Below, one piece after another: positions 19,521 to 58,453 of a stretch of 64,000 bases of DNA. Numbering within the stretch: position 1 is the first letter of the stretch; each line of letters opens with the position of its first letter. This DNA comes from an uncultured Chloroflexota bacterium. GTDB taxonomy: Bacteria; Chloroflexota; UBA11872; VXNJ01. The DNA lies in contig CAJWLF010000002.1 of assembly GCA_913043205.1 (NCBI GenBank), forward strand, positions 109,206-173,205. The letters run 5' to 3'. Position numbers and translations under genes: made by a program. Under the pieces are notes generated by a model that searched no databases, was not told where the DNA came from, and worked only from the letters and a program-made list of their open reading frames with translations.

Positions 19521-19591
19521 AGCGGGTAGCGGGAATCGAACCCGCGTTTCGACCTTGGGAAGGTCACGTTCTGCCATTGAACCATACCCGC
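19521..19591 (-). tRNA. tRNA-Gly (anticodon CCC)
   Basis: Manual cloverleaf: acceptor GCGGGTA/TACCCGC, D-stem GTTC/GAAC, anticodon stem GACC/GGTC with loop TTCCCAA (anticodon CCC), T-arm GCGGG-TTCGATT-CCCGC, discriminator U. The CCA is not fully encoded. Confidence 0.85.
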
Positions 19592-39555: not shown

Positions 39556-41529
39556 TTGAACTTAATTAATTATTTCAATCACCCGCCAAAGGAATCACGC
39601 CGAAAGCGGAGAAATAGGTCCGAAACATACGTCAGTGGAGCCACGCAAATGATACGGTCACTATTGATGGCTGTGGTTTTATTAATTCCAATGGTGGTAA
39701 GCCTATGGCCTGGATTGACGAAACCGGCAGATGCACTAGTAGCCATGTACGAACCAGATCAAGTCGTAAAATTTGTAGGGTCAGGGAGTGGGCACGGAGT
39801 GGGACTGTCTCAATGGGGAGCTCGAGGCAGAGCGCTTGAAGGGCAAAACGCCCAGCAAATAGTTGGCGCATATTATCAGGGATCCCAATTGATGCCTTAT
39901 GACACTGCTGGAACTCGCATTAGAGTGCTCATCGATGAAGCATACTTACCACCTGCTATAGATGGTTCATTTACGTCTTCCAACAAGCTACCAGGCAATG
40001 TGTACGGGTGGGGTGGGCCCTGGGCAATTGAAGGAGTTACTGGGGCCCTGCAGCCAGGAACGCGTCTCAATCTAGTATCTAACAAAGACCAGAAGTCTCA
40101 TCACGCCTATCTCTATGATCCCGCAGGACAATTGATGATTCAGTTCGGATTCCCAGGCGCACTTAAGCTAGTGTCTCTTAGCCCAGAAACCCGTATTCAG
40201 GTTTACTACAAATACACCCGTATAGTACCCGGTTCAGGAGGTACACAATTCTACGACATGTACCGTGGTGATATCTGGATCAGACAAAACGGCAAAGGGA
40301 CACTAGATACAGTTAACGAACTGGGAATCGACGATTACGTGAGGGGGGTAGTGCCTGCAGAAATGCCTCGCGACTGGCCTATGGAAGCTATAAAAGCTCA
40401 AAGTCTGGCGGCCAGAACCTATGCCCTAACAAGCCTTAACACTTCCAATCCTTGGTGGGATTTAGATGACACTACTTACTATCAACTCTATGAAGGATCT
40501 CATCGAGAACACCACATCACAAATAGCGCGGTGGAACAGACTTGGAATACCGTAATCGGATGGAATGGCCAACCCATACGCGCTTACTACTTCTCCAGTG
40601 GAGGGGGATTCACAGAAAGTGCTGGGGACGTATTCACTCAAGACCTGCCATATCTCAAAGGATTTAGGGATCATAACGCAGCAGGTCTCCCATTCGACCG
40701 AGATGCTCCAGCCGTTAAATGGGAAACCTCTGAGTTCCCTATGAAAGTAATCGAAGACATGCTCAATGAGAAAGATAATTCTCGAGTCGGAAGTCTAAGA
40801 CGAATAGATTTTAGTGATCGATCAGCAAGTGGACGTGTTAGAACCGTATTTATCGAAGGTTCCGAAACCAACCGCAAGCTCGACGCATCCTTTTTCCAGG
40901 CTATTTACAACAAGAGAACCCCCGCATCCCTCGGTGCAATGCTAAGCACAAAATTCGACGTGGAATTTGCATTCCCTCACACCCGCCCTGTCCCGCGGAT
41001 CAACATTCCAGGGCAGTCAATATATTTTGAAGAAACCGGACATAACGTCTTTTTTGGATTCAAGAAATATTTCGAACGAAACGGTGGCGTAGCTGCATTC
41101 GGGTTACCTCTAACAGAAGAATTTGATGAAAATGGAATGCGGGTGCAATACTTTCAGAAGGTACGACTCGAATACCATCCTGAGCTGGCCGGTACTCCAT
41201 ACGAGGTGCAATTAGGTCTAGTTGGAGATCAAATTGCAGCAGGCAGAAATTACGCAAAAGACACTCCTTTCATCAACAACTCTCAACATCGATATTTCGC
41301 AGAGACACAAAACTCTATTCATTTCGGATTCAAGAAATACTTCGAACGATTTGGTGGTATTGACAGGTGGGGATATCCAATATCACAAGAGGTTTTTGAA
41401 GGAGGGACTAATGTCCAATATTTTCAGCGAGGTCGTTTCGAATGGAGACCTGAACTGGGTGGAATGTTTGGCGTGTTCTCAGGCAACGTTGGTGAAGAAT
41501 ATTTACGATTGCGCGGATGGCTCAGCTAG
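39556..41529 (+). CDS. SpoIID/LytB domain protein with an N-terminal signal/anchor and two C-terminal ~60-aa tandem repeats
   Basis: SpoIID/LytB core (IDDYVRGVVPAEMPRDWPMEAIKAQSLAARTYAL; AYYFSSGGGFTE). N-terminal hydrophobic segment. Duplicated C-terminal module (...FGFKKYFER.GG...G.P...EF..G..VQYFQ...E..PEL.G). Confidence 0.85.
   Translation: MNLINYFNHPPKESRRKRRNRSETYVSGATQMIRSLLMAVVLLIPMVVSLWPGLTKPADALVAMYEPDQVVKFVGSGSGHGVGLSQWGARGRALEGQNAQQIVGAYYQGSQLMPYDTAGTRIRVLIDEAYLPPAIDGSFTSSNKLPGNVYGWGGPWAIEGVTGALQPGTRLNLVSNKDQKSHHAYLYDPAGQLMIQFGFPGALKLVSLSPETRIQVYYKYTRIVPGSGGTQFYDMYRGDIWIRQNGKGTLDTVNELGIDDYVRGVVPAEMPRDWPMEAIKAQSLAARTYALTSLNTSNPWWDLDDTTYYQLYEGSHREHHITNSAVEQTWNTVIGWNGQPIRAYYFSSGGGFTESAGDVFTQDLPYLKGFRDHNAAGLPFDRDAPAVKWETSEFPMKVIEDMLNEKDNSRVGSLRRIDFSDRSASGRVRTVFIEGSETNRKLDASFFQAIYNKRTPASLGAMLSTKFDVEFAFPHTRPVPRINIPGQSIYFEETGHNVFFGFKKYFERNGGVAAFGLPLTEEFDENGMRVQYFQKVRLEYHPELAGTPYEVQLGLVGDQIAAGRNYAKDTPFINNSQHRYFAETQNSIHFGFKKYFERFGGIDRWGYPISQEVFEGGTNVQYFQRGRFEWRPELGGMFGVFSGNVGEEYLRLRGWLS
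41017..41463 (+). repeat. intragenic tandem duplication (two ~177-nt units, period 270 nt) encoding the repeated C-terminal module of the SpoIID/LytB protein
   Basis: Units at ~41017-41193 and ~41287-41463. Nucleotide cores GGATTCAAGAAATATTTCGAACGA (41056-41079) and GGATTCAAGAAATACTTCGAACGA (41326-41349) match at 23 of 24 positions. Confidence 0.6.
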
Positions 41530-41570
41530 CTAATTAATCACTGTCAGATGTGGTACTGCTGAACCAAGAA

Positions 41571-42689
41571 TTATAAGTAGTCGGCCAAAATTGTACCTGT
41601 CAGATATTCTGATGGGATTTCTGCATCATGGCTACCAGAAGCCGGATAACGAAATTCCTTGCCCTCATAATTTCGCAATACTATCCATTCATCGTCGACC
41701 GATACCATTCTATTTGGACCTACGGTCATTTTACCTCCACCTCCTGGGGCATCGATCACATACATAGGAACCGCAAAGCCTGAAATATTACCCTGCAAAT
41801 AATTCATTATTTGCAGACCGGTACTAACATCAGTACGAAAATGATGAGTACCCTTAACCAGGTCAGCTTGGTACAGGTAGTAAGGCTTTACTCGCATTTT
41901 GAGCAATCCTAACATCAACTCTTTCATAATTTCTGGATCGTCATTCACTCCTTTCAACAAAACCGTCTGACATCCTACCGGGATACCAGCATCAATCAAT
42001 CGACCACATGCCACCGATGCTTCTTCCGTCAATTCTCGCGGATGGTTGAAGTGAGTATTCACAAAAAGCGGGTGGTATCGTTTAAGTACATCGGTTAGCC
42101 CTTCAGTTACTCGCTGAGGAAGCACGCATGGTAATTTCGTACCAATCCTCAACACCTCAATATGTGGTATGGATCGCAATTCGTTGAGAATGCGTTCAAG
42201 ATAATTATCCTCTAAGAGCAGTGGATCTCCTCCCGAAAGAAGAACGTCACGGATCTCGGTGTGCTCACGCAAATAACTGAATACATCCTGCATCTCGTTC
42301 CACGGTGGCACAGGATTTTTCCCGACCTTGCGTTTCCGAGTGCAAAACCTGCAATAAATAGCGCATGTATAAGTAACGGTAAACAAGACGCGATCTGGAT
42401 AACGATGTGTCAGATGCTTAACGGGAGAATCATCTCCATCCTCGCCTACAGCATCCTCCATGTAATACGTAGGATCATTCAATTCTTGCTCAGAAGGAAT
42501 GATCTGTTGCCATATTGGATCACCTTCTTCACGAATCAAGCTGGTGTAATAGGCATTTGAGAAAAACGGGTATAGTTTGCGTACGTTATCTATTTCGTCC
42601 TGTTTAAGACCATCTAAATCTGGAAGGTCAGAGCCGCGGCGAATATTAGAGCGCATTAGACTCTTCCACTCCGGTACTGTACTACTCAA
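41571..42689 (-). CDS. KamA-family radical SAM aminomutase (lysine 2,3-aminomutase-like)
   Basis: Characteristic CxxxCxxC cluster in KamA context (TVTYTCAIYCRFCTRKRKVG), a SAM-binding GGDPL motif (LSGGDPLLLED), and overall KamA/EpmB/EamA-like layout. 372 aa, with no C-terminal Cys-rich zinc motif. Confidence 0.85.
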   Translation of the reverse strand: MSSTVPEWKSLMRSNIRRGSDLPDLDGLKQDEIDNVRKLYPFFSNAYYTSLIREEGDPIWQQIIPSEQELNDPTYYMEDAVGEDGDDSPVKHLTHRYPDRVLFTVTYTCAIYCRFCTRKRKVGKNPVPPWNEMQDVFSYLREHTEIRDVLLSGGDPLLLEDNYLERILNELRSIPHIEVLRIGTKLPCVLPQRVTEGLTDVLKRYHPLFVNTHFNHPRELTEEASVACGRLIDAGIPVGCQTVLLKGVNDDPEIMKELMLGLLKMRVKPYYLYQADLVKGTHHFRTDVSTGLQIMNYLQGNISGFAVPMYVIDAPGGGGKMTVGPNRMVSVDDEWIVLRNYEGKEFRYPASGSHDAEIPSEYLTGTILADYL

Positions 42690-42773
42690 TACAGGAATCC
42701 TCTCGTTCCCTGAATCCGTGCATAAACTGGTGCTACCTTGGAGCCATACATCGATCTTATTTGAATAATGTTG

Positions 42774-44201
42774 TCAGTCATTGCCAACCATAACTGGAGA
42801 CATAACTGCAGTACTCATACCATGTAATATTTTGCTTGATGCAGGGCACGCAGTTGCTAACACACCAGCCAACTTTGCTTCTCCGTCTTCCACAAAATAG
42901 TACGGGGAATAACGGATGCGAGAATCAAAAACCTTAACCTCGTTTGAATCGAAGTCAAAATATTCGACCGCCAATCGTCTACTTTGTTCATACGGCTGCA
43001 GCACATAGGGAGTTGTACTGAAAGCTTGCAAAGCTTCCTGCAGCGACGAAGCCCATACATCTTGGTTCACATCATGACCAATAGTCACACCACGAGCACC
43101 CCAGGACAATTCTGAAAAACCCGATGGCTTTATAACCATTCGACGCTGCTTCTGAGTGATATTGGATAGATCAGACCACCTTCTTATTGATTTACCCGCT
43201 GTGATTAGCGGAGGAGATATCGCAGCAAACGGAGGCAGCTCAGTTGGATCCAACACCCAAGTACGCGGAATTATGTTTGATAGCACCGAGTGGGATTGAT
43301 CACCAATCTCGTGCACCCAATAATCAGTCAATTCAGGGTGATGAAATAATGCCAAAAGCAATTTCTCTTCCAATTGTGCCTTAGGGGGAGGAGATACGTG
43401 GACACGCCGGTGTCGCATCGCATGAAAAACAAAATCCACATTAGGAATATTCTTTAAGTCATGCAATTCAAAGAATCTATATAGGACATCAATTCTTTGA
43501 ACTTCCCCATTTGTATTCGTGACCAGGTCCCCTAGCTGGTAATCCAAGTCTCGAGGATGAACCAGCCTAGCGCTTACCCCAATTTTCTCCAGCCTGCTCG
43601 ACACAAGCTGCATTTCAGACCTGTATGATTCTGATTCATCAGACACCACGATGGCCACACTAGGAACATCTAATCTACAATCATCAATTAAAGCCCTTCC
43701 AAAAGCCTCTACAACTCCATCGGCAGCACCCAACAGACTGTAGCCCATGGATTTATATCCAGAAGACAGGGCATCTAAAAGCCCTATTCCTCCTGGCACA
43801 GAGTCAAGTTCAGTCGCCACTAAGTTATCCGACTCTGTAAGCATTAAATCAGGTCGAATTACAAATGGTAAGTTGGATTTCGTCCTGTTCAGCCTCCCTA
43901 ATTCCCTAACAGAATCACTCTTTCCACGATCCAGTAATTCAGATATCCAGCCCGGCTGGTGCCCGCGAACACTATCCAAATACAGTCGGTTAGACGCCTT
44001 ATAGAAACGCAAGAGGTGATTTCCCAGAGATCGAAATTTATCAGCGACATCACAAGATATCTCAATTGGCTGAGGAGATACCCGAAACGGGACCTTGGAC
44101 ACTCCTACCCCCATACCAACCTCACCAAAAAGACCGCTTTCTGGCAGTCCTGCGATCATTGCCTCCATACGCTGGGACAACTTAGATACTTCAGATTTCA
44201 A
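42774..44201 (-). CDS. hypothetical protein, possibly ATP-grasp-like (475 aa), co-directional with and immediately upstream of the KamA-family gene
   Basis: No clear family. Weak ATP-grasp-like elements (RMVIKPSGFSELSWGARGVTIG resembles the K-P...G..G phosphate-binding strand; central VAIVVSDESESY...ARLVHPRDL resembles pre-ATP-grasp/GspS-like regions). 85-bp gap to kamA. Confidence 0.45.
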   Translation of the reverse strand: MKSEVSKLSQRMEAMIAGLPESGLFGEVGMGVGVSKVPFRVSPQPIEISCDVADKFRSLGNHLLRFYKASNRLYLDSVRGHQPGWISELLDRGKSDSVRELGRLNRTKSNLPFVIRPDLMLTESDNLVATELDSVPGGIGLLDALSSGYKSMGYSLLGAADGVVEAFGRALIDDCRLDVPSVAIVVSDESESYRSEMQLVSSRLEKIGVSARLVHPRDLDYQLGDLVTNTNGEVQRIDVLYRFFELHDLKNIPNVDFVFHAMRHRRVHVSPPPKAQLEEKLLLALFHHPELTDYWVHEIGDQSHSVLSNIIPRTWVLDPTELPPFAAISPPLITAGKSIRRWSDLSNITQKQRRMVIKPSGFSELSWGARGVTIGHDVNQDVWASSLQEALQAFSTTPYVLQPYEQSRRLAVEYFDFDSNEVKVFDSRIRYSPYYFVEDGEAKLAGVLATACPASSKILHGMSTAVMSPVMVGND

Positions 44202-44706
44202 GCACTTAACTCAATCAAATTACACATTTACTTTGTCAGGAAAACCGTTTTCCCCAACAACAATACTAGCAGGTCAATCAACTTGACTATCTGAAGACCC
44301 TCAATTGTAACGCTTATACGTTAGATGATTTAGTTCGATACATGTTCTTTTTACACGGATAAAAACTTCTACAGAATCTGCCTGGATGCAGTAGGGCTCT
44401 TTATATTGACTGACGCATTAGCTCACCGATACCATAGTCATCCTAATAGTCGCCAGTATCGTCTGGGCATTCTTTGCAGTAAACAACAAACAAAACTTGT
44501 ATACATCAAAAATTGGGTGCTACAAACGACTGTGCTTCTATCAGATGCACAATGTCCAAATGCCAGATTGAGAATTTGTAAGACACAATGCACCAACTCC
44601 AAAGTTACAGCTCGCAATCACCATCAACACTGCTGATACAAAACAAAGGTGATCTCCACTGAAATCTGCGAGCAAATTTACGGTTTGCCTATTAGCTACA
44701 GCAGCA

Positions 44707-46698
44707 TTGTGTGTACTTTCAGCGTGTGAAGTTTTCGTATCCACGGTGGCCCCAACGCCCACTCTAGTAAGCCAGGCTAACACTGGAACTAGAGTGATGA
44801 CCGACGTAAAGAAGGGGCTAGTCGAAGAAGCAATCAGATCCACAGGGCGGCTAGAGGCCGATAAACGGGAAGATCTGTTCTTTCGTGCACCCGGAAGAAT
44901 AAAAGATATTGCAGTTCGACAGGGAGATTTGGTGAAAACAGGCCAGATACTCGCAGAGTTAGAATTGGGTGGATTGGAATCTCAAGTTGCTGACGCTAAG
45001 AAGGCGTTCGAGACTACGGATCTGCGGGTAAAGTCTGCCGAGTCAGCTCTAAGTGCAGCTCGCTCTGCTGCCACACAGGCATGGTTACTCGCTGAAAACG
45101 ATGCGATATTCCGTAACCAGTCATTGAAAGACTTGCAGAATGGAGGAAACCCTGCAGATGTGGGCTTGGCTGAAGCAGCGGTAGCAAAGGCTTCAATAGC
45201 CTTAATCGACGCACAACGAAAATATGATTCATTGATAGCCGCCGGAGCGTTGTCTGATAAAGCAGCATCGAGTACAGCAGCTCAAATGGAAGCAAATAGA
45301 GTAAAAGCCGCACAAGAAACCGAAGGGATTCGAGCCCGTAAAAAACCCAGCCTAGAGAGTGCCAAAGTCGAAGCCAGCAAAAGATTAACCGAATTGGAAT
45401 CGGCAAGAGACGAAGCCTTGACGGCATTTTACGAGTCAGAGAAGTCGCTTGAAGACACCCTAAACCAACCGACAGCATCCGCTAAAAGAGATGCTGAAGT
45501 AATATTCGAGAAGGCTAAACTTACCCATCAAGAAGTGATAGGTGGGAGTGGTTCAACAGAGAAGAAACAGAAAGCTGAATTAGATTTCCAAGAGGCCACC
45601 CGAACTTACAACGATTCTCTTTTGCCAGCAAGTGCTGCTGAGATAGCAAAAGCAAAGACAGCCGTGACTACTGCCAGATCGGCATCTACCAAAGCCGCTA
45701 ATAATCTAGCGGAGGCCTTGGGCAACGGGTCACGCCAACAAGCGATAGATCGACTAGCGATACAGGTGCAAGGCGAATACGACGATGAACTGGCTATTGC
45801 GGAAGCAGCTGAGCTAACGGCCACTCTAGCGGCCGAATCCGCATTGCTAGATACAAAAGATGTTTCTGCAGGTCTCGGCACGGCTGAGTTACAGAAAGTC
45901 CGTTACGGATTAAATGAAGCCCGTGCAACTCTTTCAAAAACAAAAGAGCAATTGCGTAAGTTGAATAGCCCGACTGAAGACGAGCTTCAGGTCGCGAAAA
46001 ACCTAGCATTAGCCGCCGAAACCAAACGTAAAGATACTAAGCAAAAAGTTGAACAGTATGAGTCAAAAACATCTTCCAAAGACATGGACCTGATAATTCT
46101 TCGTAATAGTCGCGATCAAGCTCGAATAAAATTGGAGCGATTTCAAGAACAAGAATTTGAGAATCAGATTATTGCTCCGTTTGATGGGGAGATCACATTC
46201 GTCCAGGGCAAGGCTGGAGACCAGGTGGCTGCATACAAAGAAATTATCGGATTGGCAGACCAGGGCAAATTGGTCGTCGAAGCCCTGATTGCAGAGGTAG
46301 ATCAACCGTCACTGTCTGTAGGACAGGCTGTGGAAGTAGTGCTCGATGCATTCCCAGGGCAAACATTTGAAGGCAAGGTAGCATCACTGCCTCGAAACAT
46401 AGTTAGTAGTACCGGTCAATCGGTAAAAGTTCCAGAAACTAAATTTAACGTCGATTTGGGCACCGCCCCTGCCGAGCTTGGAATGCTCGCCAGGCTCAAA
46501 ATAACCATAGAAGTCAAAGACAACGTTCTTTTAGTTCCCATCAGCGCTGTCCGAACAGTGAACCGCAGGGAATTTGTCGAAACAGTAATAGATGGACAAA
46601 GAAGAAGCTTACCGGTCACCACCGGTATTAGAAGTGATTTAGATGTGGAGATAGTGAATGGCCTTGAGGAAGGAATGTCAATCTTCGCTGCCCCTTAG
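44707..46698 (+). CDS. efflux transporter periplasmic adaptor (HlyD/MFP family) lipoprotein with an unusually long (~400 aa) coiled coil; translation probably initiates upstream at the CTG at 44659
   Basis: C-terminal MFP beta-barrel/MP domains (IIAPFDGEITFVQGKAGDQVAA...; LLVPISAV). Huge A/E/K-rich coiled-coil region. The upstream in-frame sequence LKSASKFTVCLLATAALCVLSAC is a textbook lipoprotein signal with an LSAC lipobox, preceded by an AGGTGA SD 6 nt before the CTG. Confidence 0.8.
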   Translation: MCVLSACEVFVSTVAPTPTLVSQANTGTRVMTDVKKGLVEEAIRSTGRLEADKREDLFFRAPGRIKDIAVRQGDLVKTGQILAELELGGLESQVADAKKAFETTDLRVKSAESALSAARSAATQAWLLAENDAIFRNQSLKDLQNGGNPADVGLAEAAVAKASIALIDAQRKYDSLIAAGALSDKAASSTAAQMEANRVKAAQETEGIRARKKPSLESAKVEASKRLTELESARDEALTAFYESEKSLEDTLNQPTASAKRDAEVIFEKAKLTHQEVIGGSGSTEKKQKAELDFQEATRTYNDSLLPASAAEIAKAKTAVTTARSASTKAANNLAEALGNGSRQQAIDRLAIQVQGEYDDELAIAEAAELTATLAAESALLDTKDVSAGLGTAELQKVRYGLNEARATLSKTKEQLRKLNSPTEDELQVAKNLALAAETKRKDTKQKVEQYESKTSSKDMDLIILRNSRDQARIKLERFQEQEFENQIIAPFDGEITFVQGKAGDQVAAYKEIIGLADQGKLVVEALIAEVDQPSLSVGQAVEVVLDAFPGQTFEGKVASLPRNIVSSTGQSVKVPETKFNVDLGTAPAELGMLARLKITIEVKDNVLLVPISAVRTVNRREFVETVIDGQRRSLPVTTGIRSDLDVEIVNGLEEGMSIFAAP

Positions 46699-46731
46699 AA
46701 TTGGCAGCTTCATTATGTTTGGGATGTACTA

Positions 46732-49605
46732 TTGATTTACTCGCTAGTGGCTTTCGCGGCCAAAAGATTGTGGAACAATGGGCTCCTGATCCTTAGTACG
46801 GCTTTCGGACTCCTGATCGCGGCAACTCTAGTAACAGCAATCCCTATGTTCGCAGAGGGGATAAGTGAATTATTACTAAAGAAGGAACTTGAGAAGCCGA
46901 ATCTGCGTATATCAGGATTGCCTGCAAGCGCCGTGCAGCTACGCCATTTTAGTCGTCATAAAACTAATGAACCACCAACGTCAGTTTCGACCTACTTAGA
47001 AGCAGATGCCTTTTACTCCACCCAAATGAGCGCAATTGTAGGACTTGAAGAAGAAATCCAAGTGAGTTACCTGCAGACAGACGTCGTTCCCCTTATGAGA
47101 TTTTCAGATGACACCGAGTCTCTGCTCAAAGCGCGAGGCCTAAACTACGGCTTCTTCGTTACCATCGATGACCAAAACAACCATGTCAAATTGCTAGAAG
47201 GGCGACTCCCTGAAAGCACCTGGGGCACGGTTGTCGAAGAAGGCTCAGGGCAACAATTACCCCTAATCGAAGCCATGATGATAAATGATTCTCTGGACAT
47301 TCTAGGTTACTTGGTTGGTGATCGAGTGAAAACCGTATACAAGAACATCAACACCGGGCAGGAGTTCCCAATAGCCGTCGATCTAGTGGGTCGTTTTGTA
47401 CCTAAAGATCTATCGTCAGAATACTGGTTTTACAACGTAGAAAGCTCCTTCGATAGAGGAGGCATGTTTGTAAATCGGGACCTCTATTTAGACAGGCTAC
47501 TGGGAGAATATCCTGGGCTTTTTTATGAAGCAACTTGGTACTCAGATTTCAACCCAGATAGCATAAACGCCGGAAATTATCGCAGAGTTACCGGTGGTCT
47601 ATATGGCCTTCGGTCGAGCACAAATACTATCTTGCCAAATACAAAGCTAGAGTATTCCCCAGAACAAATATTCGCTGAATTCGAAAACAAGTTGTTCTTC
47701 CTGCAATTATTGCTGCTAGTACTAAGTGCTCCGGTAGTAGCAATAGTTCTCTATTACATCAGTTTGTCTGCAGGCATGGTTGTCGACAGGCAACGAGCTG
47801 AAATAGCAATATTAAAAAGTCGCGGCGTCGGGACTTTACAAATAACAAGCGTATACCTCTTAGAGGGGATTATCATCGGAGCATTCGCCTTGGCCATCGG
47901 CCCTTTACTTGCATTAGGAATGGCTCAAATCGTCGGTAAAACGTATACGTTTTTAGTGTTCACAAATAGAGAATCTCTTCCGATCGACCTATCTCCGCGC
48001 CATTATACGTACGCCGGCGGTGCTATTTTATTATCTATAGCTGCTACTTTGGTCCCCGCAATTAGTGCTGCCAGGCAGTCCATAGTGGAATACAAGGCCG
48101 GTGTGTCACGAACTACAGGAAAACCACTATTCCAACGGTTTTTCTTAGACGTAGCTCTGTTTGCATTAAGCATCTACGGCTTTATCAGTTTGCGAAATCG
48201 GGATTCATTACTTAGCGTAGGGCCTGAGGGAGAATTCTTTTCGGACCCATTATTGCTAGTAATGCCTGTGATATTCATTTTCGCTGTGGCAGTACTGTTT
48301 TTGAGATTCTTCCCATGGCTTGTGGCACTATTCGCATGGGCAGGGTCCAGATGGTGGGGGGTTGGAATTCATCTGGGACTTCGCCAAATAGGGAGAAGTC
48401 CTGGGCAATTCTCAAGGTTGGTCCTACTGCTAATTCTGACTTTGGCGTTAGGAACTTTTAGTGCATCAATGGCATCAACTATTGATCGGAATGTTACCGA
48501 CCGAGCATTGTTTGGTGTAGGAGCCCTGGCATTTATCGAAGAATCAGGAGAGTGGGACGAAGAGAATGAAGAATGGTTAATCCAACCTGTAGACGTCCAT
48601 GAAAAAGCTTCTAATGAAGACGGAGACCCACTCATTAACAATTACGCAAGATTTTGGCATAAAGGAGGGGATGGAGATGCGAAATTTGAAGTCCCTGGGC
48701 GAGGTGCCCTGGAAGATATATTTGTATATGGAATTGATCCTATTCCATTCGCAAAAACAACGTTCTGGCGACCTGATTTTTCAATTTACAATTTGAATTC
48801 ACTTGCAAATGTACTAGCTGGTGATGAACGGGCGCTTCTCGCCGATAAGTCCTATTTTGGAGACCAACTCCGCTACAATCTGGGAGACCCGATAGTAGTT
48901 CGCTTCGGACAAACTGATGTTGAATTTTTTCTATCCGGATGGATCGACAGCTTCCCAACCCATTACCCAGAGGATGGTCCATTCGTTGTCGGCAATCTTG
49001 ACTATATACACCGAAATATAGGTGAAAGCCCGTGGGATGTATTGGTACAACCAGCAAACGACGCTAGCGCTACTGAATTAGCTAACGCACTCAAACAATT
49101 AGATCTCCACATCTTGGACAGCAAAGACGCTCGAGTAATAATTCAAGACGCCCGTGATGATGCCACACAAATCGGAACCTTCGGAGTTTTAACAGCTGGG
49201 TTTGTTATATCAACCATTTTGACATTACTAGGATTTCTACTTTATTCCTTCTTCTCGTTTCGTCGCAGGTTGCAACAATTCGGGATACTGCGTGCAATGG
49301 GTCTATCCGTAAAACAGATGATCGGTCTATTCATGTTTGAAAACGGATTTTTGATTGGATTAGGAACCATAATTGGAACAATTCTCGGCATAATCACTGG
49401 CAAAATGTTTATACCGTTCCTGCAGTTAAGTGCTGATCAACAAGCTTCAACACCAACATTTGTGATCGAAACCGCATGGGGAGATATTGCCAAGATATAT
49501 ATGTTGTTCATTCTAGTTCTTGCAATCGCCGTTCCCATATCCATTTGGATGCTACGCAATATTCGGATACATGAAGCCATGAAATTTGGGGAGGAAACTG
49601 GATGA
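46732..49605 (+). CDS. ABC transporter permease with two fused FtsX-like domains (MacB/DevC-like, 957 aa)
   Basis: Two repeats of TM1, a large extracytoplasmic domain, then a 3-TM FtsX bundle (first half ~aa 300-480, second ~aa 800-957), with a conserved FtsX C-terminal pattern in each. Confidence 0.85.
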   Translation: MIYSLVAFAAKRLWNNGLLILSTAFGLLIAATLVTAIPMFAEGISELLLKKELEKPNLRISGLPASAVQLRHFSRHKTNEPPTSVSTYLEADAFYSTQMSAIVGLEEEIQVSYLQTDVVPLMRFSDDTESLLKARGLNYGFFVTIDDQNNHVKLLEGRLPESTWGTVVEEGSGQQLPLIEAMMINDSLDILGYLVGDRVKTVYKNINTGQEFPIAVDLVGRFVPKDLSSEYWFYNVESSFDRGGMFVNRDLYLDRLLGEYPGLFYEATWYSDFNPDSINAGNYRRVTGGLYGLRSSTNTILPNTKLEYSPEQIFAEFENKLFFLQLLLLVLSAPVVAIVLYYISLSAGMVVDRQRAEIAILKSRGVGTLQITSVYLLEGIIIGAFALAIGPLLALGMAQIVGKTYTFLVFTNRESLPIDLSPRHYTYAGGAILLSIAATLVPAISAARQSIVEYKAGVSRTTGKPLFQRFFLDVALFALSIYGFISLRNRDSLLSVGPEGEFFSDPLLLVMPVIFIFAVAVLFLRFFPWLVALFAWAGSRWWGVGIHLGLRQIGRSPGQFSRLVLLLILTLALGTFSASMASTIDRNVTDRALFGVGALAFIEESGEWDEENEEWLIQPVDVHEKASNEDGDPLINNYARFWHKGGDGDAKFEVPGRGALEDIFVYGIDPIPFAKTTFWRPDFSIYNLNSLANVLAGDERALLADKSYFGDQLRYNLGDPIVVRFGQTDVEFFLSGWIDSFPTHYPEDGPFVVGNLDYIHRNIGESPWDVLVQPANDASATELANALKQLDLHILDSKDARVIIQDARDDATQIGTFGVLTAGFVISTILTLLGFLLYSFFSFRRRLQQFGILRAMGLSVKQMIGLFMFENGFLIGLGTIIGTILGIITGKMFIPFLQLSADQQASTPTFVIETAWGDIAKIYMLFILVLAIAVPISIWMLRNIRIHEAMKFGEETG

Positions 49606-50504
49606 GCAATCATAGTAGTATTGCAATCGGTGAACCCTACATTACGTGCGACAATCTGGTCCGCATATTCAAAGTAGCTGACTTAGAAGTGGTTGCTCTT
49701 CAAGGGCTAGATTTGATCGTCAACAAAGGGGAGTTGATGGCCATCATCGGCAATAGTGGTTCTGGCAAATCCACACTATTAAACGTGCTAGGCGGATTGG
49801 ATAGGCCAAGTGCGGGACGATGTTTAGTCGGAGGGTTAGATATAGTAAAGGCCAGCTCAGCCGAATTGGTTCGCTATAAAAGAGACATGGTCGGATTTGT
49901 TTGGCAACAAAGCTCCAGAAATATGATCCCTTACTTGTCAGCCAATGAAAATGTTCAGGCTCCTATGGTATTTGCTGGTATGTCAGCAAAAAGACGTAAG
50001 GCTAGATCTGAGGAACTGCTGGAGGCGGTAGGATTAAAAGATAGAATGCATCACCGACTAGGAGAATTGTCTGGAGGGCAACAGCAACGAGTCGCAATAG
50101 CGATATCACTTGCAAACAACCCTGATCTATTACTGGCAGACGAGCCTACAGGCGAAGTTGACAATGAGACGGCTGGACATATTTACGAAATATTACATGA
50201 CCTTAACCGCAATCAGGGATTAACTGTTGTCATCGTATCTCATGACAGAAATATAGCCAGACAAGTGGATAGGGTTGTGGCAATTCGTGACGGACGAACA
50301 AGTACCGAAACAGTGCGACGAGTTACTGATGACGGATTACCTCAATCCCACGATGAGTTCGTGATAATAGACGCTAATGGCAGACTTCAAATCCCCTCTG
50401 AATATCTTCAAGAATTGGGCATTAGAGATAGGGCAATCGTAGACGTAGAAGACGGAAACGTCATCATCCGCAAGGCCAGTGAAGACACCAGCAATGGACT
50501 CTGA
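49602..50504 (+). CDS. ABC transporter ATP-binding protein (MacB/LolD-type NBD with a C-terminal extension)
   Basis: Walker A (GNSGSGKSTLLN), signature (LSGGQQQRVAIA), Walker B (LLLADEPTG) and an H-loop (VSHD). 4-nt overlap (ATGA) with the permease gene. Confidence 0.9.
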   Translation: MSNHSSIAIGEPYITCDNLVRIFKVADLEVVALQGLDLIVNKGELMAIIGNSGSGKSTLLNVLGGLDRPSAGRCLVGGLDIVKASSAELVRYKRDMVGFVWQQSSRNMIPYLSANENVQAPMVFAGMSAKRRKARSEELLEAVGLKDRMHHRLGELSGGQQQRVAIAISLANNPDLLLADEPTGEVDNETAGHIYEILHDLNRNQGLTVVIVSHDRNIARQVDRVVAIRDGRTSTETVRRVTDDGLPQSHDEFVIIDANGRLQIPSEYLQELGIRDRAIVDVEDGNVIIRKASEDTSNGL

Positions 50505-51297
50505 CACCCCTACCATTCACACTAAAAATGAACTTGTAGAAATCGAGTCAGCATGTCGCTACTACCACGAAGGTGAAGATAACGAAGTGCGGGCAGTGGA
50601 CAAAGTTGACTTAACCATTGCCAATGCTCAATTTGTGGCATTAAGGGGTCGGTCAGGATCAGGGAAAACCACTCTACTCAACCTAATAGGCGGACTAGAT
50701 CAGGTTACCGCTGGTCGCGTGCAGTTTCGCCATACAGACTTGGCTAACATGAATGATGAAGCCCTCACAAAATTACGTCGTCACGAAATGGGATTCGTAT
50801 TTCAAACTTTCTCTCTTCTACCAGTTTTGTCTGCAGTTGAGAACGTAGAACTAACAATGAGAATAGCTGGATTGCCGAGTGGTGACCGTCGAAAAAGAGC
50901 AGAGGAACTTCTTGATTTGGTGGGACTCACCAGCAGAATGCATCACAGACCATTCGAACTCAGCGGTGGCGAACAACAGCGAGTTTCAATAGCAAGGGCA
51001 CTAGCAAATAAGCCTTCATTACTAATTGCAGATGAACCCACCGGCGCACTAGACAGTGTTACTGGACTAGAAATCATGATGCTTTTCCGGCGTATAGTGG
51101 ATGAACAGAATATTGCAATCGTAATGGCAACTCATGATCCAGCACTCAGTCAGTTCACTGATGATACGTGGCTTATGGATGATGGTAGTTTAAGCCATGC
51201 TGAGGGGCCACTGGACATAGATCTTCCAGACTTGGTCCAGCACGTAGAGTTCGACCCAGTTCCAACATCCGACGATGTGTCCGATGGAGATGTGTAA
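50494..51297 (+). CDS. ABC transporter ATP-binding protein (second NBD of the same efflux operon)
   Basis: Walker A ([12 protein letters not shown]), signature ([12 protein letters not shown]), Walker B (LLIADEPTG) and an H-loop (ATHD). The ATG at 50494 overlaps the upstream NBD stop, although the ORF track starts at a GTG at 50479. Confidence 0.88.
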
Positions 51298-51444: not shown

Positions 51445-52011
51445 ATGACTCTTCCAAATAAGAATCCCCGAGGAACACGTATTTTTGGTGATGAAGCCAA
51501 GAAGACAACTCGACGCATAAAACTACTAGGAGAGATTGATGAATTGGTGTCATCATTATCTATAGTCAGGTCACACGGTAATCCCCGATTAGATTGCACG
51601 ATTCGCCGCATACAGGCGCTTTTATTGGCTATGGGAGCCCATATTGCAGACCCTAAGGGGCGACACTCTACGAAATTAAAAGAGAGTGATTTTACCGAGT
51701 TAAAACGCTTCAGCAACACTCTTGAACAATCATTACCACCATTGAAACACTTCATTCATCCTGGCAAACCCGCCACTGCAGCTTCACTGCATCTATGTCG
51801 TTCGATCGCTCGCCGAGTTGAAAGATCAACAATTGACTTAGACACGGAAGAGCCCGTCAGCCCCGTCATATTACATGTAGCTAATGAGCTATCTGACTGT
51901 TTCTTTCACCTGGCTCGAAGCGAAGCTTGGCAGTCAGGCTCTGAGGATGAGATTTGGAAATATGCCGGACCATTGAAGAACGGTGAACTCGACGACCTTT
52001 ATTCAGGATAA
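51445..52011 (+). CDS. cob(I)yrinic acid a,c-diamide / cob(I)alamin adenosyltransferase, PduO-type
   Basis: Cob_adeno_trans pattern (RIFGDEAKKTTRRIKLLGEIDELVSSLSIV...). ~188 aa. Confidence 0.7.
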   Translation: MTLPNKNPRGTRIFGDEAKKTTRRIKLLGEIDELVSSLSIVRSHGNPRLDCTIRRIQALLLAMGAHIADPKGRHSTKLKESDFTELKRFSNTLEQSLPPLKHFIHPGKPATAASLHLCRSIARRVERSTIDLDTEEPVSPVILHVANELSDCFFHLARSEAWQSGSEDEIWKYAGPLKNGELDDLYSG

Positions 52012-52071
52012 CAAGGTCTTATTAGTGATAAGTAGTCCCTGTGACGTATTCCCTATTTTCTCTCCCATTTA

Positions 52072-52956
52072 TCAATCCCAGTCGATTACCATTCCATCTT
52101 TTCCCCACCAGACCGGACCGCCATATGCGCTTTTGACATCAGCTACGCCTTCGGTCATAGCATCCGGAGGATCCAACCTATCAGATTGATGATTGATGAC
52201 TAGGCGTTTAGCCTTTGCTTTATCTGCCATGCGACCAGCGTCGGTTGTTCCTGTTTCGGAGATGCGACTAGGATACCGAGCTATATCTCGTGCCCGATGG
52301 ACAGATTCTATAACTGTAAGATCCGCATTTCGAGAAAGTTCAACTACGGAATCGCAAGGCGCACTATCACCTGTAAATGATACGATCCCTTCATCTGTTT
52401 CAAATCTAAATCCAAAGCAATTCAGCCATGGTTGTGCGTGGCGTACTTCCATAGCACTACAGGACCACCCAGGACCGGAAGCCACCACACCCTCTCCATA
52501 CTCCTTAACCGACACAACAGGTTCAGGTCTATCCCCCTCACCTCCCCGAGAATGGTATGCGTGAATACTCATTGGATGGTTAACTCTAGCTCGAACATCG
52601 TACCAAAACACCCCCCGCTCCGGACTCCATAATCGCTCATGTAAGTCGCGCACAGGAGAAGGGCCATAAACATTCAAGACGTTTTCTTCGCCAACAGATT
52701 GATCAAACCTAGTCATAAGAAAGCAAGGGTAATCCGCTATATGATCTGAGTGTAGGTGGGTAAAAAAAAGATTGTCCACATCAGTACTAGCAATACCAGC
52801 ATGAAACAATTTGTATGTAGAAGCCGGTCCACAATCAATCATAAATCTCTGGCCTACTATGTCTAAAACAAAGCATGTGCCCCATCTATCCTTAGTAGGG
52901 GTAGGGGTACCCGCACCAATTAAGTGTAATCTAGGCATTTTTTTTATCCTTCGCAA
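52072..52956 (-). CDS. MBL-fold metallo-hydrolase
   Basis: HxHxDH motif (FTHLHSDHIADY) and further His/Asp ligands downstream. 294 aa. Confidence 0.8.
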   Translation of the reverse strand: MRRIKKMPRLHLIGAGTPTPTKDRWGTCFVLDIVGQRFMIDCGPASTYKLFHAGIASTDVDNLFFTHLHSDHIADYPCFLMTRFDQSVGEENVLNVYGPSPVRDLHERLWSPERGVFWYDVRARVNHPMSIHAYHSRGGEGDRPEPVVSVKEYGEGVVASGPGWSCSAMEVRHAQPWLNCFGFRFETDEGIVSFTGDSAPCDSVVELSRNADLTVIESVHRARDIARYPSRISETGTTDAGRMADKAKAKRLVINHQSDRLDPPDAMTEGVADVKSAYGGPVWWGKDGMVIDWD

Positions 52957-53016
52957 AATAAGAACCCATCATTTGATCTTCGACACGACATAGTCAAACA
53001 GTCCAAATCGGTTCAA

Positions 53017-54072
53017 TTAATCCCAAACTCTTTCCCATTCCCCCGACTCCACTGATTTGTACATAGCTAAAGCAGTTCTCAACTCTCCAAGAGAATATTC
53101 TGCAGACGCAGACAATTCACTACCATCTAAAATTGCTGAAGCAAAATCTGCTATTTCTAACCCAAAAGAAGCTTGGTATCCATTTCCTTGATCCATAACA
53201 ACATTACCTTCCGGATTATATTCATCATAAATCTTGATTTTCTGGCCCTGGGATCTCACAATCTTTGACTGGAATCCGCCCTCTACGACAATCTCCCCAC
53301 GTGTACCAGTAACACGCCACCACTCAGCTGGAGCCAAGACGGAGTCCACATTAAGAGCGTCAAAAGAACCAATTCTGCCACTTTGAAACTTTACTAAGGC
53401 ATGCACCAAAGATTCGCCTTGCATAGATCGCAGTGGATGATCAACAGCGGCGATAACGTCTGTGATTTCACCCATCCAAATTCTAAGCGGCCTTAACCAA
53501 TGCGATCCGCCATCTATCGTAATTCCTCCCCCAGTTCTATCTCGATCCAATCTCCAAGGGGTCCGTGGCTTCAGATCTCCAGGCTCATATTGAACCCAAA
53601 AGGACGCCTTAGCAGTGATTACTTCGCCAATGACACCCGTACGAATAAGCCGGTCAACCTCCATTATCTCAGGCCAAAACTGCGCATTTTCGGCAACTGC
53701 AAACACCAGGCCAGATTCTTTCGCACAGTTCAAAATACGATCACAAGCCTGTAGAGTCGGAGCCATTGGCTTTTCCAGCAATAAATGCTTACCTGCTTGC
53801 AGAGCAAGCAAAGACAATTCTTCATGCAAATCGTGAGGCACCATTATGTCAACAGCATCGAAATCACCGCGTTTAAGAGCCTCATCCAAAGTCGCATAGT
53901 AGGTACCATTGGTCCTCTGCACAAATCTCGCAGCCGCCTTTGGATCGGGGTCAATCAGTGCAGTAACTCGCACCCGAGGAGCATACTGTTCAATACCAGC
54001 TAAATGAGCTTTCGCTATAGATCCACAACCAACAAAAGCCAATTTCAGCACATCATTCAAGTTAGTCTTCAC
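53017..54072 (-). CDS. Gfo/Idh/MocA family oxidoreductase
   Basis: Rossmann start (LAFVGCGSIAKAH), EKP motif (LLLEKPMA) and a C-terminal domain. Confidence 0.85.
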   Translation of the reverse strand: MKTNLNDVLKLAFVGCGSIAKAHLAGIEQYAPRVRVTALIDPDPKAAARFVQRTNGTYYATLDEALKRGDFDAVDIMVPHDLHEELSLLALQAGKHLLLEKPMAPTLQACDRILNCAKESGLVFAVAENAQFWPEIMEVDRLIRTGVIGEVITAKASFWVQYEPGDLKPRTPWRLDRDRTGGGITIDGGSHWLRPLRIWMGEITDVIAAVDHPLRSMQGESLVHALVKFQSGRIGSFDALNVDSVLAPAEWWRVTGTRGEIVVEGGFQSKIVRSQGQKIKIYDEYNPEGNVVMDQGNGYQASFGLEIADFASAILDGSELSASAEYSLGELRTALAMYKSVESGEWERVWD

Positions 54073-54337
54073 CTTCGTTGCGAGACGATTTATCCGCTAT
54101 CCACCCAGCTGCGTCCCAGGGAGCTCCCCATATCCAGTACCACACACGCCTCACTAAAAGGTTGCCTCCAACAGCCCATATCACACCCAAAAACACACTC
54201 AGTACCAGAAGTGGCCAAAGCCACAAAGCCGGTATCACAATTCCAGTGGAGCTGACAGCAAAATTCAGCAACACACCAAGACCAAAGATTAGCAAAGCGA
54301 CAATCGGAAGCCTAGCTCTAGACCACCAACTATTCAT
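54062..54337 (-). CDS. hypothetical small membrane protein (2 TM helices)
   Basis: 91-aa hydrophobic ORF tightly packed between uvrB and the oxidoreductase on the same strand. No family recognised. Confidence 0.4.
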   Translation of the reverse strand: MNSWWSRARLPIVALLIFGLGVLLNFAVSSTGIVIPALWLWPLLVLSVFLGVIWAVGGNLLVRRVWYWIWGAPWDAAGWIADKSSRNEGED

Positions 54338-54356
54338 ATCGTCATCGTCATGTAAT

Positions 54357-56384
54357 TTATCCCGCTCTCTCTGAAGCTAAAGCTTGCCTCAGTTCAGATA
54401 TTTCATCACGATACATCGCAGCTTTTTCAAATTCCAGCGCATCTGAGGCGAGCCTCATCCTACGTTCTAATTCACGGATACGCTTGGAATATTCCAGAGG
54501 CGACATCTCCACCAAATCTCGTACAGCCACGCTTTCCTGTTCACCCCTCTCACCTAATCCTGAATCCCGATCGATCACCCCATCACTATCTACTAACATT
54601 TCCCTAATATCATGCAATTTTTTGGTTATAGATGCAGCTGTAATTCCATTGTCACGATTGTATTTCAATTGAATATCACGACGTCTGTATGTCTCATCTT
54701 TGGCTCTCTGCATACTTCCAGTTACATTGTCGGCATACATAACCACGTGACCTCGAACATTTCTAGCAGCACGACCAATTGTCTGAATCAATGCAACTTC
54801 AGATCTGAGATAGCCCTCCTTGTCAGCATCAAGAATAGCTACCAAGGAGACTTCTGGAAGATCCAACCCTTCCCTAAGTAAATTTATTCCTACCACCACA
54901 TCGTAAACACCTCTACGTAAATCGCTCAGAATTTCCACCCTCTGTAGAGTGTCTATTTCAGAATGAAGATAATGAACTTTTATTCCCATTTCAGACAAGT
55001 AGTCACTGAGATCTTCCGCCATACGTTTTGTTAAGGTAGTAACAATTACCCGATCGCCATCTCTCACCCGTGTACGAATCAGAAAAAGCAAGTCATCGAT
55101 TTGTCCCTCCGTCGGCTTGATTTCAATAGAAGGATCAACTAACCCTGTAGGTCTAACGATCTGCTCAACCACACGCTTACTATTCTTGTACTCAAATTCT
55201 CCCGGCGTGGCAGAAGAAAACATCACATGATTAGCCCGCTCCATAAATTCATCAAAAGACAATGGCCTATTATCATAGGCTGACGGTAGACGGAACCCAT
55301 AATTAACAAGAGACTTCTTGCGAGACTGATCCCCAGCTAGCATACCCTTTACCTGAGGCAGTGCCATGTGGGATTCGTCGACAATTATTAGTCCATCCGC
55401 AGGCAGATAATCTAAAAGCACCCATGGAGGTTCCCCTGGATCTCTTCCACTAAGATGTCGGCTGTAATTCTCTATACCAGTACAATGGCCAACTTCCCGA
55501 AGCATTTCCAAATCAAATTTTGTACGCTGACTTAATCGTGCAGCCTCCACAATCAAACCTTTAGACTCCATCTCCGCTAATTCTTGACTCAATTCATTCT
55601 CTATACCCAGTATTGCCTTATCCAGTCGCTCAGCTGGAGTAACCCAATGTCGTGCAGGATAGATGTCGATTGATTCCAAGTTGTTTAAAATTTCTCCGGT
55701 AAGGGGGTCTATTTGCACGATACGCTCTAAATCATCTCCAAAAAACTCGAGGCGGAAAGCATAATCTTCATAAGATGGAAAAATCTCTAACACGTCTCCG
55801 CGTAGTCTAAATTTTCCCCGTGATGGGCTAATGTCATTGCGTTCATATTGAATGGCAGTGAGATGGCGAAGCAATCGGTATAGATTATATTCTTGACCTG
55901 CGTTTAAACTTACACTCATTTCCCCGTAATCAGCAGGTGACCCAATCCCATAAATGCAAGAGACGCTGGCCACCACTATGACATCGCGTCTTGAAAAAAG
56001 AGAACGCGTGGTAGAAAGACGAAGCTTCTCAATTTCCTCATTAACATCGCTATCTTTTTCTATATAAGTATCGCTGCTAGGAACATACGCTTCGGGCTGA
56101 TAGTAGTCATAGTAGGACACAAAATATTCGACAGCATTGTTAGGAAAATATTCCCGAAATTCCGAACATAACTGTGCAGCTAAAGTCTTGTTTGGAGCCA
56201 AAATCAATGTAGGCTTCTGCACCTTATTTATTACATTAGCCATTGTGAAAGTTTTGCCTGAACCAGTGACTCCTAACAAGGTCTGAAATCTGTGACCTTG
56301 CATTAATCCTTCAGTCAGTGCTTGAATGGCAGCAGGTTGATCACCAGAAGGCTCGTAATCAGATACTAGTTCAAACAATGCCAT
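54357..56384 (-). CDS. uvrB: excinuclease ABC subunit B
   Basis: Helicase superfamily 2 motifs (GVTGSGKT; DESH), a beta-hairpin region and a C-terminal UVR domain ([11 protein letters not shown]). 675 aa. Confidence 0.95.
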
Positions 56385-58366: not shown

Positions 58367-58453
58367 GCCGAGGTGGCGGAATCGGCAGACGCGCTAGCTT
58401 GAGGGGCTAGTGACCTTCGGGTTGTGCGGGTTCAAATCCCGCCCTCGGCACCA
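58367..58453 (+). tRNA. tRNA-Leu (anticodon GAG), type II with long variable arm, CCA encoded
   Basis: Manual fold: acceptor GCCGAGG/CCTCGGC, anticodon stem CTAGC/GCTAG with loop TTGAGGG (anticodon GAG), variable stem-loop GACC-TTCG-GGTT, T-arm GCGGG-TTCAAAT-CCCGC, discriminator A plus CCA. Confidence 0.85.

Follow-up and report, generated by a model that had tools for sequence, protein, structure and literature searches.

The 64,000-nucleotide (nt) stretch of an uncultured Chloroflexota bacterium analyzed here (contig CAJWLF010000002.1; hereafter the window) contains an operon of four co-directional, overlapping or closely spaced genes on the + strand (44707-51297 as listed). In order, these encode a membrane-fusion-type adaptor, a permease and two ATP-binding cassette (ABC) nucleotide-binding domain (NBD) proteins, NBD1 and NBD2. 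The operon is a variant of the type VII ABC (MacB/FtsX) machines that is widespread and uncharacterized. It has the FtsX-type modules of four transmembrane (TM) helices with a large extracytoplasmic domain (ECD) after the first helix and the LolD/MacB/FtsE-type NBDs by which this class is recognized. The fusion of two such modules in its permease is real yet not novel. What is new is a dedicated NBD1/NBD2 heterodimer (strongly supported by the comparison of orthologs), a probable AbrB-like domain on NBD1 and an extreme, balanced expansion of the adaptor hairpin. An earlier reading of this DNA, made from the letters alone (the sequence-only reading), had placed the four genes exactly, as a new listing of the open reading frames (ORFs) gave the same positions and sizes.

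NBD1 (49602..50504, + strand; 300 amino acids [aa]) and NBD2 (50494..51297, + strand) are distinct ABC ATPases of the LolD/MacB type (ABC_tran; NBD1 E-value: 7e-31, NBD2 E-value: 7e-33) and fall into separate ortholog clades, N1 and N2. The closest matches of both proteins among NCBIfam models and PDB entries are LolD, MacB, Spr0694, MJ0796 and FtsE, with DevA also among the closest NCBIfam models and YbbA among the PDB sequence matches. Both score below every NCBIfam equivalog cut-off; the best model for NBD1 is LolD (223 bits, cut-off 308). The two proteins are 41% identical. For the wider family, 84 loci were fetched and their ORFs called, then classified with phmmer. A neighbor-joining tree of 129 NBD sequences from these loci (237 core columns) resolves into two perfectly monophyletic clades, one of 67 NBD1-type and one of 62 NBD2-type sequences. 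On average, sequences share 64% and 54% identity within the two clades and 40% between them; NBD1 and NBD2 of the same locus are 34-50% identical. By these comparisons, the two proteins are old paralogs that form two ortholog clades across Chloroflexota and Paenibacillaceae. A recent tandem duplication into near-identical copies, which would have undercut the claim of two distinct NBD genes in the sequence-only reading, is ruled out by the 41% identity and the age of the clades.

Both NBD genes adjoin the permease gene at 61 of the 84 loci, and the loci without both are mostly truncated by contig ends or belong to a permease-only sub-group. This linkage is kept while gene order changes: adaptor-permease-NBD1-NBD2 in Chloroflexota, NBD2-adaptor-permease-NBD1 in Paenibacillus, Cohnella, Fontibacillus and other Bacillota, and adaptor-permease-NBD2-NBD1 at one Hungateiclostridiaceae locus. 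The catalytic motifs (Walker A, the Q-loop glutamine, LSGG(E/Q), the Walker B D-E and the H-switch) match the consensus in both clades, so that the pair has no dead site; a degenerate, catalytically inactive ATP site as the source of asymmetry is thereby ruled out. NBD1 proteins have a characteristic two-residue insertion after the Q-loop (W-Q-Q-x-x-R-N-L-I-P-Y-L), and the tail of NBD2 is short, acidic and non-conserved. The coupling helices of the two permease halves differ, and each has a conserved motif of its own: R-x-x-E-I-A-I-L-K-S-R-G for one half, R-x-x-x-F-G-I-L-R-A-M-G for the other (conserved residues E357, K362, S363, R364 and G365 in the first half; G851, R854, A855 and G857 in the second). 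Given the co-inheritance of the NBDs and these distinct coupling helices, a 1:1:1 complex of permease, NBD1 and NBD2 is the most economical reading. The sequence-only reading had predicted a heterodimeric, asymmetric ATPase; the clade split and the co-occurrence uphold the heterodimer, but the asymmetry is structural and not catalytic, as both motif sets are intact. To our knowledge, the described type VII members (MacAB, LolCDE, FtsEX, BceAB and YbbAP) all have a homodimeric ATPase, and searches of the open-access literature turned up no type VII system with a heterodimeric NBD pair.

NBD1 also has a C-terminal extension. This extension (put at ~70 aa in the sequence-only reading) is real, measures ~68 aa and is conserved among orthologs. 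The residues that follow the H-switch number 87-230 in every NBD1 ortholog and 22-45 in most NBD2 proteins, a few of which are longer. Residues 250-292 of NBD1 (50349..50477, + strand; HDEFVIIDANGRLQIPSEYLQELGIRDRAIVDVEDGNVIIRKA) form a putative AbrB/MazE/SpoVT-like (swapped-hairpin-like) domain that is found in every N1 ortholog and is absent from N2, with the conserved core h-E-E-f-V-v-l-D-x-a-G-R-L-Q-v-P-x-E-y-L-e-x-l-G-I-x-x-R-a-x-v-e...i-l-I-r-P. When orthologous tails were scanned singly against Pfam, 17 of 23 matched MazE_antitoxin (SpoVT-AbrB family; E-values as low as 7.5e-6) and 17 of 23 matched MraZ. For the tail of the window protein, the MazE_antitoxin score is 16.8 bits (cut-off 24.7) and the MraZ score is 18 bits (cut-off 23), and a profile of the tails matches the AbrB N-domain structures 1z0r, 2k1n and 1yfb at an E-value of ~0.02. 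Because all of the tail scores are below the Pfam gathering thresholds, the AbrB/MazE assignment is probable, not proven. A resemblance to SRP54 was also considered and rejected. The PDB profile matches to that protein (E-value: 0.004) rest on a local D-x-A-G-R-L string that resembles the SRP54 motif D-T-A-G-R-L, a 23-residue coincidence, and Pfam SRP54 is matched by one of the 23 tails, compared with 17 for MazE and MraZ. When the NBD1 tail was searched against 1.84 billion representative proteins, it gave 105 matches, mostly short fragments that say little about domain architecture, and no description of AbrB-like domains on ABC ATPases was found in the open-access literature. Known AbrB/MazE-type domains are interleaved dimers. 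The single copy on NBD1 could pair with a second transporter, with a separate protein or with the preceding conserved T-E-T-V-R-R strand, and the domain may be regulatory. The NBD1 proteins of one clade with long adaptor hairpins (L008-L014 and L021) have a further Pro/Arg/Ala-rich tail of 60-100 residues beyond the AbrB-like domain (for example L011:8829-9989), and those of Anaerolineae end in short, basic Arg/Lys-rich tails.

The permease gene (46732..49605, + strand) encodes a protein of 957 aa with two Pfam FtsX domains. A search of 5.8 billion proteins gave 88 relatives, nearly all of 930-990 aa and with 99-100% query coverage at identities down to ~25%; the exceptions are a few fragments and some longer distant relatives. 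The 84 loci examined all encode the permease in one ORF of ~930-1000 aa, save for two or three whose assemblies are evidently broken or over-extended. The length kept in 88 homologs and at ~80 genomic loci rules out the possibility, raised with the sequence-only reading, that the single chain is an artifact of two adjacent genes merged by a frameshift. An AlphaFold model built with 54 homologs (predicted local distance difference test score [pLDDT] 85.4, predicted template modeling score [pTM] 0.79) has 10 TM helices arranged 4+2+4, in which a pair of linker TM helices connects the FtsX modules. Both halves have the topology TM1-ECD-TM2-4. ECD1 lies between TM1 and TM2 (residues ~55-310; 46894..47661, + strand) and ECD2 between TM7 and TM8 (residues ~597-810; 48520..49161, + strand); both are modeled as mixed alpha/beta domains. 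Two FtsX modules in one chain, each with a large ECD, had been proposed from the translation, and the Pfam matches and the model agree with this. BLASTP detects no similarity between the two halves, which are homologous by hhalign (probability 95%, E-value: 3.9e-8, 183 columns, 17% identity); ECD1 and ECD2 show a weak profile likeness (E-value: 3e-5, 65 columns). As the halves are alike at the profile level only, they point to an ancient internal duplication.

In a Foldseek search of the PDB, the permease is most similar over its full length to YbbP of E. coli (9ge6_A, E-value: 8.8e-21; 9ge7_A, E-value: 1.6e-19), followed by BceB, LolC/E, MacB, HrtB and YtrF. Local matches to the isolated periplasmic domains of MacB, LolC and LolE were also found, the search output leaving open which domain of the permease they match. 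The 10-TM, 4+2+4 chain with two ECDs is thus of the YbbP type, and the permease is not atypical in itself ("atypical" being the term for the whole operon in the sequence-only reading). Fused permeases with two periplasmic domains have already been catalogued by Greene et al. in 2018, always with separately encoded NBDs (PMC5985334).

The adaptor gene (44659..46698, + strand; the listed ORF, 44707-46698, encodes 663 aa) specifies a membrane-fusion lipoprotein of the HlyD/MacA type, with split lipoyl, hairpin, beta-barrel and membrane-proximal domains. Its Pfam matches are Biotin_lipoyl_2 at residues 59-86 and HlyD_3/HlyD_D23 from about residues 415/488. It passes TIGR01730 (RND_mfp; 102 bits, cut-off 94.9) and falls below the MacA equivalog (77 bits, cut-off 342). 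Between the lipoyl halves is an alpha-helical hairpin of ~392 aa (residues 90-481; 44974..46149, + strand) with eleven helical segments and a G-G-S-G tip (residues 280-283; 45544..45555, + strand), in which G280 and G282 are invariant. The hairpin is best conserved on both sides of the tip: conservation is 0.71-0.77 for the base and tip helices (H5/H6 beside the tip) and 0.53-0.61 for the mid-arms. That the tip is better conserved than the mid-arms suggests that it is an interaction site.

The length of this insert varies among orthologs in discrete, clade-specific classes: 50-55 aa in Bacillota (~52 aa in Paenibacillus), 69-98 aa in a few Chloroflexia and unclassified loci, 163-209 aa in Anaerolineae, 240-250 aa in L002 and L044, 379-391 aa in the window clade and a metagenome-assembled genome assigned to Thermoflexus hugenholtzii (379 aa), 519-528 aa in L008-L012, L014 and L021, and 603 aa in L013. 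Such a range within what is otherwise one orthologous system is remarkable, and a series from ~52 to 603 aa with arms that grow in lock-step was not described in the searchable literature. The inserts are rich in Ala, Leu, Glu and Lys/Arg, have a very low Pro and Gly content (1-3% Pro) and contain no other Pfam domain. With a small hidden Markov model of the tip region, the tip was located at 0.487-0.503 of the insert in orthologs with inserts of 389-603 aa. The two arms measure 190/200, 258/262, 266/262 and 300/302 residues for inserts of 389, 521, 528 and 603 aa, respectively. Compared with the 820-aa ortholog of L008, insertions of 59 aa before the tip are balanced by 60 aa after it. One sub-clade has a tandem duplication of 25 aa in the ascending arm and a matching one of 28 aa in the descending arm, at a similar distance from the base. 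For a two-armed antiparallel hairpin, the evidence of these alignments is stronger than that of the structural model. Adaptor hairpins are known to lengthen through heptad insertions in both helices (PMC4446572). An alpha helix rises by ~0.15 nm per residue. From this value, arms of 190-300 residues would have an upper-bound length of ~28-45 nm if straight.

The adaptor gene likely has a non-canonical start. The cysteine codon of the predicted lipidation site (44725..44727, + strand; residue 7 of the listed ORF) lies in a lipobox that reads L-S-A-C here and L-[SA]-[GA]-C or a near variant in homologs. A cysteine occupies this position in every full-length homolog aligned and in the distant orthologs checked, including those of Paenibacillus, and so the adaptor can be classified as a lipoprotein. 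The listed TTG start at 44707 leaves only six residues ahead of this cysteine. Upstream in the same frame, from CTG 44659, the DNA encodes K-S-A-S-K-F-T-V-C-L-L-A-T-A-A-L-C-V-L-S-A-C, a typical lipoprotein signal peptide. An AGGTGA sequence sits 6 nt before this CTG, and in this region (44647-44727) the in-frame sequence upstream of the listed start contains no ATG, GTG or TTG. CTG 44659 is therefore likely to be the true start. The homolog P0089 (94% identical) has likewise been called with a truncated N-terminus.

The four genes are tightly packed. A gap of 33 nt separates the adaptor stop from the permease start, and the ATG of NBD1 overlaps the permease stop as ATGA. NBD2 may begin at ATG 50494 (267 aa), with an 11-nt overlap with NBD1, or at GTG 50479 (272 aa), with an overlap of 26 nt. 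The ATGA junction and the 11-nt overlap of the sequence-only reading are thus borne out, the latter with the ATG start. Translational coupling is seen in the arrangement of these junctions. The G+C content is uniform across the operon region (~45%), and promoter, terminator and Rfam scans around the operon gave only chance-level results, with no riboswitch.

The operon shares parts with several characterized systems. YbbAP(-TesA), of which a structure was published in 2025 (PMC12646458), has the same permease architecture, a single chain in which the two FtsX modules come with two ECDs and a pair of linker TM helices, as well as a separate gene for a LolD/MacB-type NBD. However, YbbP is powered by two copies of YbbA (PMC12646458), whereas two distinct, conserved NBDs are encoded here, and its partner is the periplasmic hydrolase TesA rather than a membrane-fusion-type lipoprotein. 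YbbP and the present permease are only ~13-14% identical, and the NCBIfam models are not reached here. MacAB-TolC, Spr0693-0694-0695 of S. pneumoniae and YknXYZ of B. subtilis resemble the operon in combining a type VII transporter with a MacA/HlyD-type adaptor (lipoyl, beta-barrel and hairpin). Unlike the present proteins, MacB is an NBD-permease fusion that homodimerizes; here the NBDs are separate, the permease is a fused pseudo-dimer and the MacB equivalog is matched with 213 of the required 966 bits. A TolC-like partner such as that of MacAB is not expected in Chloroflexota. Spr0694/0695 form a 2:2 complex, in contrast to one fused permease with two different NBDs. The Gram-positive MacA-like adaptor Spr0693 forms a hexameric tube with a helical barrel 56 Å high that reaches into the wall (PMC5768738). 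The present arms of ~190-200 residues each would be about fivefold longer than this 5.6-nm barrel if extended.

LolCDE is also an asymmetric type VII system and provides the best sequence matches (LolC/E/F for the FtsX modules and LolD for the NBDs), but it consists of two permease chains and a homodimeric LolD. The asymmetry is reversed here, with one permease chain and two NBDs, and scores fall far below the cut-offs of the corresponding models (TIGR02212, 41 bits, cut-off 362; TIGR02211, 223 and 208 bits, cut-off 308). BceAB has a fused 10-TM permease of the same superfamily (Foldseek E-value: 1e-12) and separate NBD genes, but BceB has a single ECD (TM7-8) where the present permease has two, BceA is a homodimer, and the system has a partner histidine kinase and no adaptor. 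The cyanobacterial glycolipid exporter DevBCA-HgdD likewise combines an adaptor, an FtsX permease and an ATPase, and the DevA and DevB models are partially matched (TIGR02982, 170 and 195 bits, cut-off 296; TIGR02971, 37 bits, cut-off 129). DevC, however, has a single FtsX module and one ATPase and requires the TolC-like HgdD in a diderm envelope.

The mechanism that we consider reasonably probable, taking architecture and mode of action together, is ATP-driven mechanotransmission that expels a substrate from the membrane face into an envelope-crossing adaptor assembly. In this model, the YbbP-like permease would provide both FtsX halves in one 10-TM chain, each with its own ECD. One NBD would engage the coupling helix of one half and the second NBD that of the other, and together they would form an ATP sandwich dimer in which both sites are predicted to be canonical. 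The lipid-anchored MacA/HlyD-type adaptor would sit on top of the ECDs, presumably as a hexamer. As in MacB, ATP binding and hydrolysis would move the stalk helices and ECDs, and no substrate would be carried across the membrane; instead, the substrate would be taken up at the outer face of the membrane and pushed into the adaptor assembly. The hairpin (~190 + 200 residues, up to ~28 nm if straight) would then carry it through the multilayered Chloroflexota envelope, which has no outer membrane, with the conserved tip probably contacting a distal envelope component. Chloroflexota have been described as monoderms with multilayered envelopes and without outer-membrane markers (PMC13319060), and in such an envelope a long conduit or spacer is plausible. 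The data would fit the suggestion of the sequence-only reading that the adaptor could span a thick wall.

Several observations weigh against this mechanism. A crude test for 3.5-residue hydrophobic (heptad) periodicity was not significant (z = 0.9), and so the element, a coiled coil of ~400 residues in the sequence-only reading, is termed here a helical hairpin (about 390 residues) and not a proven heptad coiled coil. The AlphaFold model of the adaptor (pTM 0.32) has low pLDDT in its globular domains and an unreliable global geometry, so that an extended 28-nm rod is not demonstrated. Its helix breaks fall at roughly matching positions in both arms, which would allow the hairpin to fold back as in CusB. 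We know of no outer exit-duct protein in Chloroflexota. No linked gene that would reveal a substrate (such as a regulator or a biosynthetic cluster) was found, the neighbors in the window being unrelated housekeeping genes. Related operons include a solute-binding-like lipoprotein, which hints at a function beyond simple drug efflux, and about a dozen related permeases (L022, L025-L027, L029, L035, L058, L065, L067, L077, L078 and L083) are without adjacent adaptor or NBD genes. Lastly, the closest relative with a solved structure, YbbAP, is a hydrolase complex that extracts lipids and not an efflux pump (PMC12646458).

The example of YbbAP-TesA, like that of FtsEX-EnvC, leads to a different reading, in which the machine is a mechanotransmitter and nothing travels through a tube. 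The hairpin would be a lever, tether or spacer, and the complex would place or activate an enzyme or structural layer farther out in the envelope, for instance in wall remodeling or the anchoring of a sheath or S-layer. A partner protein that defines function is a recurring theme in type VII systems (PMC12646458), and the extra lipoprotein in operons of Paenibacillaceae and some Chloroflexota would suit such a role, as would a hairpin tip conserved in the manner of an interaction site and the closer relationship to YbbP than to MacB. Nevertheless, the adaptor passes TIGR01730 and has all of the lipoyl, beta-barrel and membrane-proximal domains of efflux adaptors, a combination that accompanies hexameric tubes in known systems, and no gene for a hydrolase or other partner is conserved beside the operon in the window clade. 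A machine without a conduit, the main rival reading, is judged unlikely. Less likely again is an ordinary resistance pump of the MacAB/YknXYZ kind, in which the ~390-aa insert folds back into a compact helical bundle, the variation in its length reflects neutral low-complexity expansion and the assembly does not exceed other Gram-positive adaptors in height. The eleven helices with roughly paired breaks, the weakly conserved, Ala-rich mid-arms and the non-significant heptad signal would all fit a bundle of this type, and the hairpin of the CusB adaptor does fold back (PMC4446572). It is difficult to reconcile with arms whose lengths agree to a few residues while the size varies 1.5-fold and with duplications that are matched in both arms, as these indicate selection on the pairing register along the whole length of the hairpin; moreover, the insert lengths fall into discrete clade-specific classes instead of drifting, and the Pro and Gly content stays very low.

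There is a very small chance that NBD1 and NBD2 do not act in one complex, with one of them (NBD1, for example) serving as a regulator or energizing another transporter and the permease working with a homodimer as in YbbP/YbbA. AbrB/MazE-type domains are normally dimeric DNA binders, a single copy per complex is odd, and some related permeases have no adjacent NBD genes. Yet both NBD genes are linked to the permease across two phyla and through rearrangement of gene order, they overlap each other, the catalytic motifs of both proteins are intact, and the permease halves have distinct conserved coupling helices. All of these points favor the heterodimer.

A bolder proposal is offered tentatively, and doubt about it is considerable: the hairpin may be an extended rod or tube, 28 nm long here and up to ~45 nm in relatives, with its length set by envelope thickness and its conserved tip docked on a defined outer layer of the supposedly monoderm Chloroflexota. 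If this were true, hairpin length (52-603 aa) would be a ruler of envelope architecture that can be read from sequence across uncultured lineages. The heterodimeric NBD pair, with an AbrB-like domain on one subunit, would set this family apart as a new asymmetric class among the type VII ABC machines, which are under active structural study. Two specialized NBDs on a fused permease provide a natural system in which to ask whether the ATP sites or the ECDs do different jobs. The adaptor series, with its strictly balanced arms, shows unusually cleanly how the length of a hairpin can evolve, and it bears on the nature of the outer layers of the Chloroflexota envelope and on how these are crossed without an outer membrane or TolC. 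In a scan of one representative genome per species, a permease relative was found in at least 456 genomes, including those of cultivable Paenibacillus species.

The genes around the operon are conserved in order. Positions 39556-44201 and 51445-56384 of the window are syntenic with L001, a 2.1-Mb Chloroflexota contig with a permease 62% identical to that described here. In both, a SpoIID-like gene, a radical S-adenosylmethionine aminomutase-like gene and a gene for a 475-aa protein precede the operon, which is followed by a cobalamin adenosyltransferase gene and, further on, UvrB and similar genes. This shared order indicates that the operon is a stable chromosomal feature and is not on a mobile element. 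The flanks of the window match those of L001 in gene size and order. Neither a kinase nor a regulator was found among the called L001 neighbors, and no SGNH/GDSL hydrolase (TesA) gene was found in the operon or among these neighbors. The 475-aa protein (42774-44201, − strand) is divergent from the operon across an intergenic region of ~450-500 bp and is kept beside it at 11 related loci (L001, L005-L011, L013, L014 and L021). It has no Pfam match and shows faint similarity to circularly permuted ATP-grasp proteins (E-value: 0.08). Apart from this divergent gene, no partner gene is conserved beside the operon in the window clade.

The solute-binding-like lipoprotein mentioned above belongs to the SBP_bac_1 family and is encoded by a fifth operon gene in Paenibacillaceae and some Chloroflexota (L044:2485-3855, L048:9789-11288, L063:3114-4445, L069:9769-11202 and ~20 further loci). 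This gene follows NBD1 or precedes NBD2 in Paenibacillaceae and is found just ahead of the adaptor gene in some Chloroflexota; in L044, the overlap with the adaptor start is 4 nt. Its neighbors include no importer-type permease genes, and tblastn detected no copy in the 64-kb window. The permeases without adjacent adaptor and NBD genes look like a paralogous sub-group with ATPases encoded elsewhere. Two permeases of this kind, lacking both NBDs and adaptor, are found in tandem at L031:5980-11707, and L002 encodes an adaptor and a permease with no NBDs nearby. The only Rfam matches in the window at the gathering threshold are two tRNA genes, at 19521-19591 (− strand) and 58367-58450 (+ strand).

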